A stretch of DNA of 64,000 nt from Flavobacterium sp. (GTDB lineage: Bacteria; Bacteroidota; Bacteroidia; Flavobacteriales; Flavobacteriaceae): positions 11,419 to 75,418 of the forward strand of contig JAAFGY010000001.1 in NCBI GenBank assembly GCA_010365135.1, in the 5' to 3' direction. How positions within the stretch are numbered: the first letter of the stretch is position 1; the number at the start of each line of letters is the position of its first letter. Shown piece by piece: positions 8,240 to 43,889 of the stretch. The notes beneath the pieces were generated by a model. It had not been told where the DNA came from, ran no database searches, and saw only the letters and a program-made list of their open reading frames with translations. A program made the translations under genes and the position numbers.

Positions 8240-8390
8240 CCCTAGCCCTGAGTGAAGTGGAAATCCTTGTGAAAAGAAAGGCTAATTTTTTCTTGCCAAA
8301 AAAGAGCGACCACCGGAAGCTCCTTTTTGGGTTTAGAAAAATAGCCTTTATTGAGCAAGATTGAAACGGAAGGCAGGAAACAGCTCCTGA
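8240..8390 (+). repeat. Long nested-hairpin element (Flavobacterium repeat, possibly Flavo-1-like RNA)
   Basis: Nested pairings CCTG/CAGG, AATC/GATT, CTTG/CAAG, AAAGGCTA/TAGCCTTT, TTTTTCT/AGAAAAA, CCAAAAA/TTTTTGG, GAGC/GCTC. The Flavo-1 resemblance is from memory only. Confidence 0.6.
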
Positions 8391-36083: not shown

Positions 36084-36572
36084 ATGAAAAACACAACAGT
36101 AATCATCGTAGGAACTTCTCGAAACAACGGAAATACCACAAAAATAGCCGCTGAAATTGCAAATCAATATGCTATTGATGTAATTAATTTGAATGATTAT
36201 CAATTTTCATATTATGATTATGAAGGCAAAAATAGAGACGATGATTTTCAACCTTTAATAAAATCGATAATAGAAAAATACGACACTGTAATTTTTGCCA
36301 CACCCAATTATTGGTATAATATGAGTGGGATTATGAAGGTTTTTTTCGATAGATGTACAGATATAATTCTAATCGAAAAAGAGACCGGAAAAAGTCTTAA
36401 AGGAAAAAAATGTGCCGTGATTTCAAATTCTCATACAGATGAAATGGAGTCAGACTTTTATATTCCTTTTCGAAAATCGGCCGAATATTTAGGAATGAAA
36501 TACATAGGAAATGCTCATTTTAACGCAGATAAATTTAACCTAAAAGATAAAATAGAATTAGCTTTTATATAA
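36084..36572 (+). CDS. Flavodoxin-family protein / NADPH-dependent FMN reductase
   Basis: GTSRNNGNT and ATPNYWYNMSGIMKVFFDR motifs. Confidence 0.85.
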   Translation: MKNTTVIIVGTSRNNGNTTKIAAEIANQYAIDVINLNDYQFSYYDYEGKNRDDDFQPLIKSIIEKYDTVIFATPNYWYNMSGIMKVFFDRCTDIILIEKETGKSLKGKKCAVISNSHTDEMESDFYIPFRKSAEYLGMKYIGNAHFNADKFNLKDKIELAFI

Positions 36573-36583
36573 AATAAAAAACA

Positions 36584-37339
36584 ATGTTATCAATAAAAAA
36601 TCTACACGCCTCTATTGGAGGAGATAAAGAAATATTAAAAGGAATTAACCTTGAAGTTAAAGCGGGAGAAATCCATGCGATTATGGGGCCAAATGGTGCC
36701 GGAAAAAGTACTCTTGCTTCAATTATTGCGGGAAACGAAAACTACGAAGTGACCCAGGGAGAAATCTTTTTGGACGGCGAAGATATTTCAGAATTGGCCC
36801 CCGAAGAAAGAGCCCACAAAGGGGTTTTCCTTTCGTTCCAATATCCTGTTGAAATTCCTGGAGTTTCGGTAACCAACTTTATGAGAACGGCAATCAACGA
36901 AACTCGTAAGGCCAATAAACTCGAAGAAATGCCAGCAAATGAAATGCTGAAATTCATTCGCGAAAAATCGGAATTACTGGAAATTGACCGTAAATTTTTG
37001 TCTCGTTCGTTAAATGAAGGGTTTTCTGGTGGCGAGAAAAAACGCAACGAAATTTTCCAAATGGCAATGCTAGAACCAAAACTCGCCATCCTTGACGAAA
37101 CCGATTCTGGATTAGATATTGATGCTTTGAGAATCGTTGCCAATGGTGTAAACAAACTCAAAAGTGACAAAAACGCCATCATCGTAATCACGCATTACCA
37201 AAGACTTTTGGACTATATTGTTCCTAATTTTGTTCACGTTTTATACAATGGAAAAATTGTAAAATCCGGAGGAAAAGAATTGGCTTACGAACTCGAAGAA
37301 AAAGGTTACGACTGGATTAAACAAGAACAAGAAGCTTAA
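36584..37339 (+). CDS. sufC: Fe-S cluster assembly ATPase SufC
   Basis: [41 protein letters not shown] motifs. Confidence 0.97.
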
Positions 37340-37343
37340 AAAT

Positions 37344-37373
37344 AGTCGAAAGTCGCAAGTCATAAAGTCAAAA
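37344..37373 (+). repeat. Left heptamer arm (AGTC family) of the four-helix-bundle cassette
   Basis: AGTC at 37344, 37351, 37358, 37366. Confidence 0.75.
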
Positions 37374-37385
37374 GAAAAAAATGGG

Positions 37386-37753
37386 ATGGGTAAATTTAGT
37401 TCTTTCGAAGAAATTAATTCTTGGCAAAAATCAAGGATATTCAACAAAAGAATATATCTAATTACAGAAACATCAAGTTTTAAAAAAGACTTTGATTTTG
37501 TTAGACAAATTAGACGAGCATCAATTTCAATATCATCAAATATAGCTGAAGGTTTTGAAAGAAATACAGATAAAGAGTTTGTATACTTTTTATATGTTGC
37601 AAAAGCTTCTGCGGGGGAAGTTAGCCCCAATTATATTTGGCATACGATTTAGAATACATAACAAAAGAAGATTTCGAAATATTATTAGAATCAGTAACAG
37701 AAATATCAAAATTGTTAAGTGGTTTTATAAAATATTTGAGTCTAAAGTCATAA
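37386..37753 (+). pseudogene. Four-helix-bundle protein (IVS-protein family) with a 1-nt frameshift
   Basis: DFVRQIRRASISISSNIAEGFER and YVAKASAGEV in one frame; QLYLAYDLEYITKEDFEILLESVTEISKLLSGFIKYLSLKS-stop(37753) continues in another frame from about 37625. Confidence 0.82.
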
Positions 37754-37768
37754 AGTAATTTTGCTTTT

Positions 37769-37844
37769 GACTTTCAGACTTGTAATAAACAAAATAGTTG
37801 ACAATCTTGAGTCTTTTGACTTTTGACATTCGACTTTAAGACTT
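37769..37844 (+). repeat. Right heptamer arm (GACT family) of the four-helix-bundle cassette
   Basis: GACT at 37769 and 37777; GAC at 37818, 37825, 37832, 37840. Confidence 0.75.
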
Positions 37845-37851
37845 AAATATA

Positions 37852-39168
37852 ATGGAATTGAAAGAAAAATTACTATCGTCTTTTATGGCTTTTGAAGAGC
37901 AAGTGGATGTTCATTCCGAACTTCACAATGTGCGAACTGAGGCTTTAAAAAACTTTGAAAATAAAGGTTTCCCCACCAAAAAAGAGGAATCTTGGAAATA
38001 TACTTCGCTAAATGCCATCTTAAAAAATGACTTCACGGTATTTCCAAAGGACGAATTGACGATCGAATTCAGGGATGTAAAAAAATATTTTATCCACGAA
38101 ATCGACACTTACAAAGTGGTTTTTGTTGACGGCGTTTTTAGCTCGCATTTGTCTTCGACTACACACGAAGGAGTAGATATTTGTTTGATGTCATCGGCAT
38201 TGCACAAGCCCAAATACAAAATGGTTATCGACAATTATTTTAATAAAATTGCTAGTAAAGACGAGAGTTTAACGACATTGAATACGGCTTTTGCCAATGA
38301 AGGAGCCTATATTAACATCCCGAAAAGTACTGTAGTTCGAAAACCTATTGAGATTATGTATTTCTCGACAGGCAACGAAGCGGCTCTTATGGTTCAACCT
38401 CGAAATTTAATAATTGTTGGAGAAAATTCTCATGTTCAAATCATCGAAAGACATCAAAGTTTGAACGAAAATCCAGTTTTGACCAATTCAGTTACTGAGA
38501 TTTTTGCCCAAAAACGCGCCATCGTCGATTTCTATAAAATCCAAAACGACAATCATGAAGCCAATTTAATTGATAATACTTACGTTTCCCAAAAACAAGA
38601 AAGCCACGTTTCAGTTCACACTTTCTCTTTTGGAGGAAATTTGACTAGAAACAATTTGAATTTCTATCATTTTGGAGAAAGATTGACTAGCACACTTAAC
38701 GGAATTACGATTATTGGAGACAAACAACACGTAGATCATTATACTTTAGTACATCACGCCGCGCCAAATTGCGAAAGCTTTCAAGATTATAAAGGCATTT
38801 TTTCGGACAATTCTACGGGTGTTTTCAACGGAAAAGTTTATGTCGAAAAAGAAGCTCAAAAAACCAATGCTTTCCAAAAAAGCAACAACATTTTGTTGGG
38901 CGATAGATCAACAATAAATGCAAAACCACAATTAGAAATTTTTGCCGATGACGTTAAATGTTCGCACGGTTGCACGGTAGGACAACTCGATGAAACTGCT
39001 ATGTTCTATATGCAATCCCGAGGAATTCCTAAGAAAGAAGCTAAAGCCTTATTGATGTACGCGTTTTCAAATGCGGTTATCGAAAGCATCAAAATCCCAG
39101 AATTGAAACAACGAATTACCAAAATCATCGCTTTGAAATTAGGTGTGAAATTGGGATTTGATTTGTAG
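37852..39168 (+). CDS. sufD: Fe-S cluster assembly protein SufD
   Basis: FPTKKEESWKYT, LNTAFANEG, KPQLEIFADDVKCSHGCTVG motifs. Confidence 0.96.
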   Translation: MELKEKLLSSFMAFEEQVDVHSELHNVRTEALKNFENKGFPTKKEESWKYTSLNAILKNDFTVFPKDELTIEFRDVKKYFIHEIDTYKVVFVDGVFSSHLSSTTHEGVDICLMSSALHKPKYKMVIDNYFNKIASKDESLTTLNTAFANEGAYINIPKSTVVRKPIEIMYFSTGNEAALMVQPRNLIIVGENSHVQIIERHQSLNENPVLTNSVTEIFAQKRAIVDFYKIQNDNHEANLIDNTYVSQKQESHVSVHTFSFGGNLTRNNLNFYHFGERLTSTLNGITIIGDKQHVDHYTLVHHAAPNCESFQDYKGIFSDNSTGVFNGKVYVEKEAQKTNAFQKSNNILLGDRSTINAKPQLEIFADDVKCSHGCTVGQLDETAMFYMQSRGIPKKEAKALLMYAFSNAVIESIKIPELKQRITKIIALKLGVKLGFDL

Positions 39169-39210
39169 TTTTTAAATACAACGTTTCAAAGGTTTACGAA
39201 CGGATGAACT

Positions 39211-39278
39211 AAAAGGCGCACAATTTAATAATAACAAACTTTGCGCCCTTTTCGATTTTCTTTGTGTGCTTTGTGGTT
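39211..39278. repeat. Degenerate 9-mer inverted array (CTTTGYG family)
   Basis: AAAAGGCGCA.../...TGCGCCCTTTT, then CTTTGTGTG CTTTGTGGTT. Confidence 0.5.
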
Positions 39279-39282
39279 TAGT

Positions 39283-40629
39283 TTACCTCTTTAAACTTTT
39301 AACAATCCCACTCAACAACCTATTAAAATCAAAATCAGGAGCTTCTGTTAAACCCATTCGCACGATTACTAAATCATGGCTTGGGAAAATGGCAACCATT
39401 TGGCCTTGATATCCGCTGCAATACAACATATCTTTAGGAACATCAGCAAATTTTCCGCCGGCATTGAGCCAAAAATGAGCTCCATATTTCCCGTTTGAAG
39501 TATTGGTCGGTGTAGCGACATATTTTGCCCAATTTGTGTCAAATAGTTGCTCGCCGTTCCAATTGCCTTTGTGCAAATACAGTAATCCAAATTTTGCCCA
39601 ATCACGCGTCGTTGCCCAACCGTACGAGGAACCTACATAATTTCCAGCCATATCCGTTTCCACTATCATCGAATTCATTCCAATTTTATCAATCAAGGCC
39701 GAATACCAAAAATCTAAATATTCCTGATGCGTTTTGAATTGTTTTAGCAAAATTCCGGACAATAAATTGGTCGTTCCGGAGGAATAATTCCAATGGGAAT
39801 TGGGTTTGAATTGCGCCGGTTTTTTCAATTGAGACTGGCTCATATCTTCCGCTTGAAAAAGCATTTGAGTGGCATCACAAATTTTGGTATAATCTTCTTC
39901 CCATTCCAAACCGCTGTTCATATTGAGCAAATTGGCGATGGTGATTTTGGAGCGTTCATCATTTGCCCATTCGGTAATTGGAGCAGGTTTAAAAACATCT
40001 AATTTGCCTTGTTTTTGCATAATTCCATAGATAGTTGCCGTAATACTTTTAGTCATTGACCAGCCCAAAATTTTGGAGTTTTTATTGAAACCCGTGTCGT
40101 ATTTCTCGGCAATAATTTTGTCTTTGTAAATAACCAAAACAGCACGAGTTCTTTTACTTTTTTGGTCTTTTACGTCAAAAGCATTGGCAACAGCCGCATT
40201 CAGTTTTGTGTAATCAATGTTGGCAAAAAAAGTGTCTTTTGGCTCGTTATTTCCATAGGGAAAAGGTAAATTGTTGCTGATTTTGGTTCTTTTTGGAACT
40301 TCATACGGTTTTGAAATATCAAAAGCATCGTTGATTAAAGTTGCCCCTAAACCTTCTCTGTAAATGGCTTTCCGTTCTTTTAAACCATAAACCGAACTAG
40401 TGACAAATTTTCCGTTTTCGTTAATTTTGTTTTTCGCCAAAGTAATCATCTTGATATCATTGTCTCCTGTCTCAATTATATCTTGCGAACGATGATCTAT
40501 AAAATGTCCCGAAGCCATACTTTTGGCCGAAAAACCTGAGATTAAATCCAGCTTTGGATACGTGGTGTAGCCAAAATAAATTAGGAATAACAAAACGACA
40601 AGACCAAGAATTTTGAATATTTTTTTCAT
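39283..40629 (-). CDS. Serine hydrolase (beta-lactamase class C-like), membrane-anchored
   Basis: WSMTKS (SxxK), WNYSSG (YxS), GYQGQ motifs; N-terminal TM segment. Confidence 0.88.
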   Translation of the reverse strand: MKKIFKILGLVVLLFLIYFGYTTYPKLDLISGFSAKSMASGHFIDHRSQDIIETGDNDIKMITLAKNKINENGKFVTSSVYGLKERKAIYREGLGATLINDAFDISKPYEVPKRTKISNNLPFPYGNNEPKDTFFANIDYTKLNAAVANAFDVKDQKSKRTRAVLVIYKDKIIAEKYDTGFNKNSKILGWSMTKSITATIYGIMQKQGKLDVFKPAPITEWANDERSKITIANLLNMNSGLEWEEDYTKICDATQMLFQAEDMSQSQLKKPAQFKPNSHWNYSSGTTNLLSGILLKQFKTHQEYLDFWYSALIDKIGMNSMIVETDMAGNYVGSSYGWATTRDWAKFGLLYLHKGNWNGEQLFDTNWAKYVATPTNTSNGKYGAHFWLNAGGKFADVPKDMLYCSGYQGQMVAIFPSHDLVIVRMGLTEAPDFDFNRLLSGIVKSLKR

Positions 40630-40744
40630 TTGAAGCGAAATTTTGACCAATTTAGCAAAAATAGCATAGAGAAATCATATTTTGTTATAAATTAATACTG
40701 TTAAAAATTGTAAAATCTTGCTATTGAAACCCACCTATATTCAC

Positions 40745-40773
40745 TACTTTTGTATTTAGAATTTTTCTAAATA
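40745..40773 (+). promoter_or_regulatory. sufS -7 element immediately followed by a palindromic operator
   Basis: TACTTTTG (40745-52), then TATTTAGA-ATTTT-TCTAAATA (40753-73). Confidence 0.65.
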
Positions 40774-40778
40774 ACAAA

Positions 40779-41993
40779 ATGTTAGATATAAATAAAATTA
40801 GAGCCGATTTTCCAATACTTTCAAGAACTGTAAACGGAAAACCATTGGTATATTTTGATAATGGAGCCACCAATCAAAAGCCGCAAATAGTAATTGATGC
40901 GATTGCCAAATATTACCAGGAAATCAATGCCAATATCCATCGCGGCGTGCATACTTTGAGCCAATTAGCCACCGATGCTTATGAAGTTTCGCGTGGTAAA
41001 ATTCAAAATCATATCCATGCAAAATTCGCCCACGAAGTGATTTTTACATCGGGAACAACGCACGGAATTAACGCCGTTGCGAATGGTTTTGCTTCGCTAC
41101 TACAAGCTGGCGACGAAGTTTTGGTTTCGGCAATGGAACATCACAGCAATATTGTGCCTTGGCAAATGTTGTGTGAGAAAACTGGGGCGATTTTGAAAGT
41201 GATTCCAATGAATGAAAACGGCGAGTTGATTCTTAGCGAATTCGATAAATTATTGTCGGATAAAACAAAAGTCGTGACGGTAAATCATATTTCTAACGCT
41301 TTGGGAACCATCAATCCCATCAAATATATCATTGACAAAGCACACGAATTTGGAGCAGCGATTTTAATTGATGGAGCGCAAGCCGTTCCGCATTTGAAGC
41401 CCGATGTCCAGGAATTAGATTGTGATTTTTATGTTTTTTCTGGTCATAAAATGTGTGGGCCAACGGGAACAGGAATTTTATACGGAAAAGAAGATTGGCT
41501 TAATAAATTACCTCCTTATCAAGGTGGTGGTGAGATGATAAAAGAAGTGACTTTCAAGAAAACTACTTATGCCGATTTGCCACACAAATTTGAAGCGGGA
41601 ACGCCAAATATTGCTGGAGGAATTGTTTTGGGAACAGCCGTTGATTATTTGAATTCCGTTGGTTTTGAGAACATTCAACAACAGGAAACAGAATTGGTAG
41701 AATACGCAACGAAACGATTATTGGAAATTGAAGGTTTGAAAATTTTTGGCACAGCCAAAGAAAAAACATCGGTGATTTCGTTTAATGTTGGCGAAATTCA
41801 TCCGTATGACATTGGAACAATTATAGACAAGTTAGGAATAGCCGTACGAACCGGACATCATTGCACGCAACCTATTATGGATTATTTCAAAATTCCGGGA
41901 ACAATTCGCGCATCGTTTTCGTTTTATAATACCAAAGAAGAAATTGACGTTATGGTCGAAGCGGTTAAAAAAGCGCAATTAATGTTGTCTTAA
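40779..41993 (+). CDS. sufS: Cysteine desulfurase SufS
   Basis: YFDNGAT, EHHSNIVPW, FSGHKM (PLP Lys), RTGHHC motifs. Confidence 0.96.
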   Translation: MLDINKIRADFPILSRTVNGKPLVYFDNGATNQKPQIVIDAIAKYYQEINANIHRGVHTLSQLATDAYEVSRGKIQNHIHAKFAHEVIFTSGTTHGINAVANGFASLLQAGDEVLVSAMEHHSNIVPWQMLCEKTGAILKVIPMNENGELILSEFDKLLSDKTKVVTVNHISNALGTINPIKYIIDKAHEFGAAILIDGAQAVPHLKPDVQELDCDFYVFSGHKMCGPTGTGILYGKEDWLNKLPPYQGGGEMIKEVTFKKTTYADLPHKFEAGTPNIAGGIVLGTAVDYLNSVGFENIQQQETELVEYATKRLLEIEGLKIFGTAKEKTSVISFNVGEIHPYDIGTIIDKLGIAVRTGHHCTQPIMDYFKIPGTIRASFSFYNTKEEIDVMVEAVKKAQLMLS

Positions 41994-42003
41994 AAATAAA
42001 AAA

Positions 42004-42438
42004 ATGAAACTATTTACCATGATTTTTCTAAGTATTTTTCTTGGCAAAAGTTGTTCTAGTCAAACCAAAAATGATTTGAAAACAGCTGTTTTGGAATATA
42101 CTGCCAACACCCGAGGTTTTTATCAAAAAATTACGATTCAAGACCAAATGGTTTCCGTTTCGAAAGATAGAAATAGCAATGAAAAGCCGATTGCTACAAA
42201 AATTTCGGATAAAGATTGGAAGGAATTGGTCGGTTATTTTGAAACCATCGAATTGGATAGTTTAGCCACTTTAAAAGCACCAACCGAAAAACGCTTTCAT
42301 GATGGTGCGGCAATCGCCAATTTGAAAGTGGTTTATAAAGACAAGACTTATGAAACCGTAGCTTTCGATCACGGTTTTGCACCAACAGAAATAAAAAAAT
42401 TAGTTGATAAATTAAACACCTTTGCTAAAAAAGAATAA
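42004..42438 (+). CDS. Uncharacterised lipoprotein
   Basis: Lipobox-like GKSC; DGAAIANL...YET..FDHG pattern; stop overlaps the sufE ATG (TAATG). Confidence 0.7.
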   Translation: MKLFTMIFLSIFLGKSCSSQTKNDLKTAVLEYTANTRGFYQKITIQDQMVSVSKDRNSNEKPIATKISDKDWKELVGYFETIELDSLATLKAPTEKRFHDGAAIANLKVVYKDKTYETVAFDHGFAPTEIKKLVDKLNTFAKKE

Positions 42439-42857
42439 TGAGCATTAAAGAAATACAAGAAGAAATAATAGATGAGTTTTCGATGTTTGACGATTGGATG
42501 CAACGTTATGAATACATTATTGATTTAGGGAAAAACTTGCCGTTAATCCAGGAGGAATTCAAAACTGATGATAATATTATTAAAGGTTGCCAGTCGAAAG
42601 TTTGGCTGAAAGGAGAACAAAAAGACGATAAAATAGTCTTCACCGCCGATAGCGATGCAATTTTGACCAAAGGAATAATAGCCATATTAATTCGGGTTTT
42701 TTCAAACCAAAAAGCTTTGGATATTCTCAATGCCGATATGAATTTTATTGATGAAATTGGTTTAAAAGAACATTTATCACCAACACGAGCCAACGGATTG
42801 GTTTCGATGATTAAGAATATAAAAATGTACGCATTGGCTTTCGATGCAAATAAATAA
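42438..42857 (+). CDS. sufE: Cysteine desulfuration protein SufE
   Basis: RYEYIIDLG, IKGCQSKVW, DSDAILTKG, LSPTRANGL motifs. Confidence 0.95.
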   Translation: MSIKEIQEEIIDEFSMFDDWMQRYEYIIDLGKNLPLIQEEFKTDDNIIKGCQSKVWLKGEQKDDKIVFTADSDAILTKGIIAILIRVFSNQKALDILNADMNFIDEIGLKEHLSPTRANGLVSMIKNIKMYALAFDANK

Positions 42858-42874
42858 TAAAAGATCAATAACTT

Positions 42875-42900
42875 GAGATGGCGCCGTGCCTCGCAATGAC
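42875..42900. repeat. Remnant of a REP-like hairpin arm
   Basis: GAGATGGCGCCGTGCCTCGCAATGAC resembles, from memory, Bacteroidota ...CTCGCAATGAC repeats; a related CGTCAGAATGAC tail lies at 8194-8205. Confidence 0.45.
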
Positions 42901-42907
42901 AAAAAAT

Positions 42908-43231
42908 ATGGAAACAAAAATAGACACAAACCAACTAGGAATTGATATCGTGGCAAAACTAAAAACCATCTACGATCCGGAAATTCCCGTTGATATTTAT
43001 GAATTGGGATTGATATATGACGTAATGGTCAGTACCGATTATGAAGTTAAAATCCTGATGACCTTAACTTCCCCAAATTGTCCGGTTGCCGAAAGTTTGC
43101 CAAGAGAAGTGGAAGAAAAAGTAAAATCATTAACTCATGTAAAAGACGCCGAAGTGGAAATCACTTTCGATCCGCCTTGGAGCAAAGATTTGATGAGTGA
43201 AGAAGCAAAATTAGAACTGGGAATGCTTTAA
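42908..43231 (+). CDS. DUF59/SufT-like Fe-S assembly protein
   Basis: IYDPEIPVDIYELGLIY, MTLTSPNCPVAE, TFDPPWS motifs; ATG 42908 preferred. Confidence 0.92.
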   Translation: METKIDTNQLGIDIVAKLKTIYDPEIPVDIYELGLIYDVMVSTDYEVKILMTLTSPNCPVAESLPREVEEKVKSLTHVKDAEVEITFDPPWSKDLMSEEAKLELGML

Positions 43232-43235
43232 TATT

Positions 43236-43316
43236 AGTTGTAAAGTTAGAAAGTCGTAAAGTCTGAAAGATAGCAATTTTATGACATTCGACTTTTGACA
43301 TTCGACTTTAAGACTT
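43236..43316. repeat. Gene-less AGTC/GACT heptamer inverted array
   Basis: Left AAAGTTAG AAAGTCGT AAAGTCTG; right GAC at 43283, 43290, 43297, 43304, 43312; 43290-43316 is identical to 37818-37844. Confidence 0.85.
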
Positions 43317-43321
43317 GAATA

Positions 43322-43825
43322 ATGGAAGAAATTGTAAATAAAGTTGCCAATAGTACTTTGGAGATTTTCGATTTGGAAGATTATTATCCAAAAGGAACTC
43401 GTGCGCAAATTGATATTTCTAAATGGTTTCTGGAAGGTTTCTTGTTGAAAGAAAAAGACTTTCGAGCGCATTTACAGGAACACGATTGGTCCCAATACCA
43501 AGACCAATATGTAGCCATTCATTGCAGTACCGAAGCTATTTTTCCAGCATGGGCTTCCATTTTGGTTGCGATTAAATTATCGCCTTTTGCCAAAAAAATC
43601 GTAAACGGAACTATCGAAGATTTGGATGCTGCTTTATACGAAGAAATCCTTTCTACAATAAATTATTCGGTTTACGAAAACAAAGCTATAATTATAAAAG
43701 GCTGTTCGAAAAAACCTGTTCCAATGCGTGCTTATATTTTGGCTGCCAATTATTTACAACCTTTTGCCAGAAGTATTATGTATGGCGAAGCTTGCTCGGC
43801 AGTGCCTCTTTTTAAGAAAAAATAG
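43322..43825 (+). CDS. DUF2480-family protein
   Basis: EIVNKVANS...FDLEDYYP, LKEKDFR, IKGCS, SIMYGEACSAVPL motifs. Confidence 0.85.
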   Translation: MEEIVNKVANSTLEIFDLEDYYPKGTRAQIDISKWFLEGFLLKEKDFRAHLQEHDWSQYQDQYVAIHCSTEAIFPAWASILVAIKLSPFAKKIVNGTIEDLDAALYEEILSTINYSVYENKAIIIKGCSKKPVPMRAYILAANYLQPFARSIMYGEACSAVPLFKKK

Positions 43826-43851: not shown

Positions 43852-43889
43852 AAAAATACCCTTTTGATTTATTTCAAAAGGGTATTTTT
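43852..43889. terminator. Bidirectional intrinsic terminator
   Basis: AAAAATACCCTTTTGA-N6-TCAAAAGGGTATTTTT. Confidence 0.8.

Follow-up and report, generated by a model that had tools for sequence, protein, structure and literature searches.

The spacer between the DUF59 and DUF2480 genes of a Flavobacterium suf operon is filled by a solo hairpin of 27 pairs. On balance this element, which occupies positions 43236-43315 of the window (the whole stretch of 64,000 nucleotides of DNA that was analysed), is read as an ORF-less member of a family of intercistronic palindromes made of tandem units, family A, and as kin to the stem of a cassette that resembles the intervening sequences (IVS) of ribosomal RNA. 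In the same genome family A also forms the 27-bp closing stem of a cassette with a gene for an intervening sequence protein (IVP) at the sufC-sufD junction. Stems of this kind generally enclose the IVP and GxxExxY genes of Flavobacterium operons, each protein lineage having a unit family of its own, and stop-to-ATG spacers are occupied by solo hairpins of the cassette families. The hairpin at the DUF59-DUF2480 junction is near-constant among species, but the family to which it belongs changes without relation to the flanking genes and tracks the cassette family found elsewhere in the genome. Intervening elements of the rRNA type appear to lie between the cistrons of mRNAs as well, and the solo hairpin, which is a real and general feature, is best filed as a variant of IVS- and REP-like elements.

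The genes on both sides of the solo hairpin lie on the plus strand and are identified by Pfam as FeS_assembly_P/DUF59 (PF01883, 42878-43231) and DUF2480 (PF10652, 43322-43825); sufS (40779-41993) and sufE (42438-42857) were assigned in the same way. The minimum free energy (MFE) fold of this strand consists of a left (5') arm at 43236-43267, a loop of 19 nucleotides at 43268-43286 and a right (3') arm at 43287-43315, with four extra pairs inside the loop (43270-43273 with 43279-43282). The left arm, which is confirmed by the pair table, is built of AAAGTY-type units of 7-8 nucleotides (TRF period 16, 2.1 copies, at 43236-43269) and starts 4 nucleotides past the DUF59 stop codon (43229-43231). 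The right arm, which is also recovered by TRF and by alignment with 18 orthologous type-A hairpins, reads GACATTC-GACTTTT-GACATTC-GACTTTAA-GACTT and ends 6 nucleotides 5' of the DUF2480 ATG. It contains a perfect tandem repeat of 14 nucleotides in two copies (43282-43309, TRF), and in the alignment the window carries an extra repeat unit relative to the 18 orthologues. An earlier note on this DNA had placed the left AAAGTC arm only about 12 nucleotides from the right arm, and this is the distance measured between 43236-43269 and the repeat that begins at 43282. The element at 43236-43321, with its 19-nucleotide loop, holds no ORF, and Rfam has no family for 37300-43400, neither at the gathering score nor at E <=10. 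Elsewhere in the window Rfam places a Flavo-1 RNA at 8240-8384 (45.4 bits; gathering score 42), which is unrelated to the solo hairpin.

A long stable hairpin located directly 3' of a gene could serve as a transcription attenuator or terminator within the operon, and related palindromes do precede T-runs, for example at 1929-1981 of the window (TTTTT) and in several metagenome copies. Such a role for the solo hairpin is very improbable because no U-run follows the stem past 43315, where TGAATAATG is found instead. The stem is AT-rich with only about six G-C pairs, and the terminator scan misses it, yet calls a bidirectional terminator after DUF2480 (43852-43889) as the end of the suf operon. 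The palindrome at 1929-1981 is made of tandem units of another family (ACCATTAAGGAATTAAGG...CTTAATTTCTTAATGGT, MFE -34.7), lies between the co-directional ORFs 998-1870 and 2082-2843 and has its TTTTT directly 3'; this CATTAAG family also fills the sufE-DUF59 junction in several other species. A sigma-70-type promoter match inside the right arm (43295-43323, TTGACA-17-AATAAT, 11/12, the best of the region) was discounted since promoters of Bacteroidetes are of another kind and its second hexamer runs into the ATG.

The cassette of the window spans 37344-37843 on the plus strand, between sufC (ABC ATPase, 36584-37339) and sufD (SufBD, 37852-39168), both identified by Pfam. Its left arm (37344-37375) consists of AGTCRAA heptads (TRF period 7, 4.3 copies, at 37344-37374) and starts 4 nucleotides past the sufC stop codon (37337-37339). 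The right arm (37812-37843; TRF period 7 at 37813-37837) includes the first copy of a 27-mer discussed below and ends 8 nucleotides 5' of the sufD ATG at 37852. In the fold the two arms pair over 27 bp to form an outer stem with a duplex energy of about -31 kcal/mol. The cargo is a 23S_rRNA_IVP/four-helix-bundle gene (PF05635, TIGR02436; 37386-37758, Pfam E 2.5e-23). It is a pseudogene: three-frame translation against intact homologues reveals the net loss of 1 nt near 37623-37628, after which the reading frame changes from 0 to 2. Two runs of the same sample yielded contigs with the identical frameshifted sequence. The IVP stop codon is overlapped by a nested, solo-type inner hairpin of type A (37738-37781, 19 bp by fold), and the 64-kb window holds three type-A hairpin structures. 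The solo hairpin and the cassette stem have in common their heptad family, the stem length of 27 bp and the geometry of placement, as both stems start 4 nucleotides past the upstream stop codon and end 6-8 nucleotides before the next ATG.

Several observations on this region stand apart from the comparison of the stems. A conserved, non-repetitive motif, ATAGT(C/T)GACAATC, lies at 37794-37806 between the inner hairpin and the right arm; it is found in lineage-1 cassettes and is equivalently placed in L017, L026, L033, L041, L051, L060, L063, L068, L078, L094 and L113, and some solo type-A hairpins (L003, L047, L050) have a similar (A)TAG(T/C)TGAC in their loop. The motif could be a remnant that links solo hairpins to cassettes, or an internal signal. 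The sequencing runs that contain the window are DNA metagenomes, and RNA runs share only 5% of words with it. Run X2 also contains another, more abundant strain (word depth about 88 vs 27), in which an identical sufC 3' end is followed by TTGTTTGAAGTTTAAAGTTTAAAGTTG, a type-B hairpin which replaces the A-type cassette (compared with 37300-37343 of the window). An FMN-reductase-family gene at 36084-36572 between sufB and sufC is present in the window and in L202-L204 and absent in L201, so the sufB-sufC junction is also variable among species. The charge of the IVP was considered as a hint of nucleic acid binding and is uninformative, the protein being only mildly basic (pI about 8-8.8).

The two elements had first been linked by a shared stretch of 27 nucleotides, and exact search finds GACTTTTGACATTCGACTTTAAGACTT in precisely two copies in the window, at 37818-37844 and 43290-43316, both on the plus strand. 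None occurs in 100 shuffles (0 expected by chance), and the window holds no third copy when up to three mismatches are allowed. The copies end 7 nucleotides 5' of the sufD ATG (37852) and 5 nucleotides 5' of the DUF2480 ATG (43322), just as had been noticed, and both genes are confirmed by Pfam. For random sequence an identity of 27 nucleotides is far beyond chance. The 27-mer corresponds to four successive heptad units of the conserved family-A repeat and is near the family-A consensus; in another species, L043, the orthologous DUF59-DUF2480 junction has an exact copy, and versions with one or two mismatches occur in several further species, L003 and L049 being one base off. Within family A the identity is only moderately unusual, because 2.6% of right-arm pairs drawn from different genomes and different junctions share at least 27 identical bases. 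Among eight genomes it is nevertheless only in the window that the two paralogous arms share 27 nucleotides, compared with 10-16 nucleotides in the others. Gene conversion between the copies, as proposed in the earlier note, is possible, and this one genome in eight points faintly towards it, as does the correlation of the arm families of the two junctions within genomes; a recent homogenisation of the two copies in the window genome is plausible but not required.

The DUF59-DUF2480 junction was compared across 80 Flavobacterium loci, orthologous regions around DUF2480 in which many counts are not independent of each other. A hairpin of tandem units occupies the orthologous spacer, 65-160 nucleotides long, in about 75 of 79 species, and each of the 72 testable junction spacers forms a far more stable fold than its shuffles (mean -28.2 vs -9.6 kcal/mol, median z -6.6). 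In about 72 species the first pair of the stem lies around 4 nucleotides past the stop codon and the stem ends 5-14 nucleotides (about 11) before the ATG. The units belong to family B (GTTTCAG/CTGAAAC) in 29 cases, family A (AAAGTC/GACTTT) in 22, family C (CAGTCG/CGACTG) in 16 and family D in 5. Two hairpins stand in tandem at the junction in some species, and since those of L041 and L043 are two different A-type copies, the hairpin is a discrete and copyable unit. At least five species lack the hairpin, which is dispensable there; one species has a spacer of only 15 nucleotides, and four have a gene for a 610-aa ABC transporter at this place, without arms or hairpin.

The family of the hairpin is not a function of the similarity of the flanking genes. 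The fraction of pairs with the same family is about 0.3 in every bin of flanking-gene identity up to 95%, and the 90 coding nucleotides flanking each side are no closer in same-family than in different-family pairs (0.855 vs 0.854), which argues against slow drift in place and against allelic recombination, the latter being rejected as the cause of the turnover. Instead, the family at the junction correlates with that of the sufC-sufD arms of the same genome at a distance of 6 kb, with an odds ratio of 11.6 for A with A (p = 3.6e-4) and of 4.1 for B with B (p = 0.02), an association that could be partly phylogenetic. Among the 18 orthologous type-A hairpins no pair is altered on both sides, and family A offers no compensatory changes because its sequence is too conserved. 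At the DUF59-DUF2480 junction sense and antisense strands fold equally well, with no G-U signature of selection on the mRNA strand.

This last result and the dispensability of the element in several species agree with the explanation that the hairpins are a functionless, selfish or mutational by-product, in which replication slippage of heptads and switching templated by hairpins generate and homogenise the palindromes at the DNA level, and the products persist in stop-to-ATG spacers only because they do no harm there. The perfect 14-nucleotide duplication in the right arm of the window and the varying number of units among orthologous hairpins are of the same kind, and heptamers are the commonest long simple repeats in bacteria (PMC4679880). 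On this explanation the link with IVP would come about because both accumulate in the same safe sites, and the frequent decay of the cargo genes (4 of about 34 IVP genes and 5 of about 30 GxxExxY genes are broken) fits it too. The by-product explanation is held to be unlikely, however, in view of the near-universal occupancy of the junction despite complete turnover of its sequence, of the way in which IVP type and arm family are paired, and of the genomic distribution described further below.

At the sufC-sufD junction of the 80 loci an IVP gene is present in roughly every second species. Genes of lineage 1 share 64-94% identity with the IVP of the window and are always found within A arms; those of lineage 2 share about 40% identity with it and are always within B arms, also when located upstream of sufC. 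Lineages 3 and 4 reside at other suf junctions within two further unit families, and all four lineages belong to PF05635. It is this pairing of IVP type and arm family by lineage, at several sites, that speaks against the by-product explanation. A second type of cargo, a GxxExxY/PDDEXK_3 gene (TIGR04256), occupies the sufE-DUF59 junction between CATATAAG/CTTATATG arms in about 29 species (for example L006:8931-9574 and L202:16110-16520), and in other species solo hairpins with the same arms are found there; in the window this spacer measures only 20 nucleotides (42858-42877). The sufC-sufD spacers that lack an IVP gene consist of 65-81 nucleotides of tandem heptads, some of which form strong hairpins with B-type arms as at the filled sites. 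Pairs of filled and empty sites with the same arms at one place therefore exist, for type B at sufC-sufD and for CATATAAG at sufE-DUF59.

The proposal that cassette and solo hairpin are the filled and empty states of one element thus holds at the level of the family, in the common heptads, 27-bp stem and geometry and in these paired sites. It is not borne out at the DUF59-DUF2480 junction itself, where no relative among about 79 species has IVP cargo and the ABC-transporter gene of four species is armless. A further type of empty sufC-sufD spacer, type E, has (TAACTYA)n as its right half directly before the sufD ATG in about 20 species, with (TAACTCA/TAACTTA)n ends in L016, L023, L037, L040 and about 16 others, a one-nucleotide variant of TAACTGA. 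Type-E spacers are probably not hairpins of the sense strand, because in 27 of 31 empty sufC-sufD spacers the antisense strand is the more stable. Nor is the nested stem universal for PF05635, as an IVP ORF on the minus strand of a high-G+C contig (L166, 11367-11834 in reverse-complement numbering) has flanks with no obvious heptad arms. The duplex energy of the flanks was tried as a discriminator and rejected: medians of -28.7 and -28.5 for IVP and GxxExxY genes stand against -20.2 for control ORFs, a control that is contaminated because ordinary genes are also flanked by single-family hairpins. No transposase is linked to any of the cassettes.

Beyond the suf operon, a 19-base core of the A arm is present in at least 120 metagenome contigs. 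A census of 1.5 Mb recovered 125 tandem-unit palindromes, compared with 8 in shuffled sequence, of which 74 lie between co-directional genes, 26 between convergent and only 2 between divergent genes. Both the excess over shuffled sequence and the scarcity between divergent genes, the rest being in transcribed spacers beside the end or start of a gene, speak against the by-product explanation. The A-arm pattern has no match in 2.9 million viral contigs, and an origin from phage was rejected on this ground. IVP or GxxExxY genes enclosed by heptad stems within operons are not described in any publication returned by a literature search, which was not exhaustive; in RepRanger many palindromes of two Flavobacterium genomes are catalogued but not characterised.

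The position of the repeats before start codons had suggested a role in translation initiation. The heptads just 5' of the ATG might bind a ribosome-associated or other RNA-binding protein, or the hairpin might couple termination to initiation. In the latter variant the ribosome that terminates would open the base of the stem and bring stop codon and ATG within about 10 nucleotides of each other, in an organism that does without Shine-Dalgarno pairing. A fixed place before start codons is indeed seen at the DUF59-DUF2480 junction, in about 72 species, and the cassette has the same geometry with respect to stop and ATG. The near-constant distance to the ATG follows, though, from the hairpin filling the whole spacer, and the fixed place does not extend to the A-arm matches listed from metagenomes, only about one fifth of which lie within 30 nucleotides 5' of the start of an ORF on the same strand. 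The other listed copies adjoin the ends of genes, separate convergent genes, precede T-runs or belong to long arrays, and for 53 of the 124 listed the context is an array or another one in which no local hairpin forms. When the type-A copies that do have a local hairpin are deduplicated, the GACNTTCGACTTTAAGACTT arm is on the sense strand before a start 23 times and in the opposite orientation 7 times, a count in favour of translation that is inflated by orthologous contexts. In its favour, too, the (TAACTYA)n of empty sufC-sufD spacers is one nucleotide away from the TAACTGA repeats (PMC4679880). Against it stand the 26 census elements between convergent genes, the leaders from stem to ATG, which differ by family and have no motif in common, and the left arm, which is conserved as well as the right arm in the junction spacers and would not need to be if the right arm were a single-stranded binding site. 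As a whole the evidence on a translational role of the hairpin is neutral, and a translation element is considered a rather improbable account of it.

The favoured reading, an ORF-less member of family A related to the cassette stem, suggests how such elements may arise and act. Solo hairpins would be non-autonomous relatives of cassettes; they would either derive from cassettes by loss of the cargo or represent sites whose loops receive cargo, and they may be copied and homogenised within a genome via slippage, template switching or gene conversion. Insertion of an element, with or without cargo, would keep both cistrons physically juxtaposed, because the stem closes 4 nucleotides past the stop codon and 6 nucleotides before the ATG; insertion would therefore be harmless and tolerated even inside an essential operon. 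By analogy with the Coxiella IVS, the architecture of which matches that of the cassette, both stems may be regarded as RNase III substrates or decay barriers, and the solo hairpin is probably an RNase III or stability element in mRNA. On the polycistronic suf mRNA the 27-bp stem might act like the stem of an rRNA IVS, that is as a double-stranded substrate of RNase III, and/or as a barrier to 3' exonucleases. In this way it would set the DUF59 segment apart from that of DUF2480, or stabilise them, and DUF2480 would be left with a short A/U-rich leader.

A bolder and rather doubtful extension is that IVP, and in parallel GxxExxY/PDDEXK_3, is the trans-acting partner of the lineage-specific heptad palindromes, in an autonomous/non-autonomous pair like that of RAYT and REP. 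The protein of a cassette would then bind, process or propagate those ORF-less hairpins that share its unit family, whether they lie in mRNA spacers or in rRNA helices. The partnership, if true, would provide a function for the 'intervening sequence protein', which is not known to have had one since 1993, and it would join rRNA IVSs, the intercistronic hairpins of Bacteroidetes and the unexplained heptamer repeats of Beggiatoaceae and Cyanobacteria. If the favoured reading is true, rRNA IVS elements are one face of a wider class that colonises stop-to-start spacers, even those of essential operons, and that leaves behind or recruits many ORF-less hairpins in Flavobacterium. This would explain the scatter of "four helix bundle" and "GxxExxY" genes among unrelated genes and would make the function of the IVP family accessible to tests. 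It would further reveal what is probably a layer of mRNA processing or of cistron coupling, in a phylum that does not rely on Shine-Dalgarno initiation, and it would be a warning for annotation and operon prediction, because spacers with heptad hairpins are neither promoters nor terminators.

Among known systems, MITEs have the terminal inverted repeats of an IS and target-site duplications. The solo hairpin has no IS relative, the whole of its arm is repetitive, and its flanks TTTAATATT / GAATAATG contain no direct duplication. The Correia (CREE) elements of Neisseria and other bacterial MITEs are short, ORF-less inverted repeats which are co-transcribed with their neighbours, and the stems of Correia elements are cut by RNase III. 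The solo hairpin is likewise a short ORF-less inverted-repeat element among the genes of an operon. REP/BIME elements of Enterobacteria and Pseudomonas are similar in being extragenic, imperfect palindromes located past stop codons of co-directional or convergent genes, sometimes in tandem clusters, and in forming families that are homogenised within a genome. However, REPs measure about 35 nucleotides, have no heptad periodicity and are linked to RAYT, whereas the elements described here have arms of tandem repeats and are associated with four-helix-bundle and GxxExxY genes; the GTAG head of REP is not visible in the solo arms.

TAACTGA repeats are found immediately 5' of start codons in Beggiatoaceae, Cyanobacteria and some Bacteroidetes, where a translational regulation has been proposed; they are direct repeats only, with one indirect set reported, and no link to IVP is reported for them (PMC4679880, MacGregor 2015). 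Like them, the elements of Flavobacterium are tandem heptamers in spacers that end a few nucleotides before start codons in Shine-Dalgarno-poor genomes, Bacteroidetes included. The period-7 arrays of the window end 5-7 nucleotides before an ATG, but their unit GACTTTY differs from TAACTGA, and unlike the TAACTGA repeats they are always accompanied by a complementary array with which they form a hairpin of 25-30 bp.

The closest parallel is offered by the IVS of 23S rRNA. The IVS in helix 45 of the Coxiella burnetii 23S rRNA has a stem of 28-bp terminal inverted repeats with a decaying S23p ORF in its loop, contains tandem heptameric repeats of variable copy number and is cut by RNase III in the stem (PMC4990558). 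IVS in the 23S rRNA of Leptospira are cited in the same source as encoding S23p/IVP too (Ralph & McClelland 1993, cited in PMC4990558). Unlike these, the elements of the window are hosted by mRNA spacers of the suf operon with no rRNA helix involved, and a search with Rfam detects no rRNA anywhere in the window. In Coxiella the excision by RNase III has been demonstrated; here it is suggested by analogy. A further difference from the IVP-bearing IVS is that the solo element at 43236-43321 is without a PF05635 ORF, its sibling at 37344-37843 carrying a pseudogene. The resemblance lies in a long stem (28 bp in Coxiella, 27 bp in the cassette) whose loop contains a PF05635 ORF, in heptameric repeats of variable number, in the decay of the ORF and in the occurrence of short ORF-less versions at similar sites.
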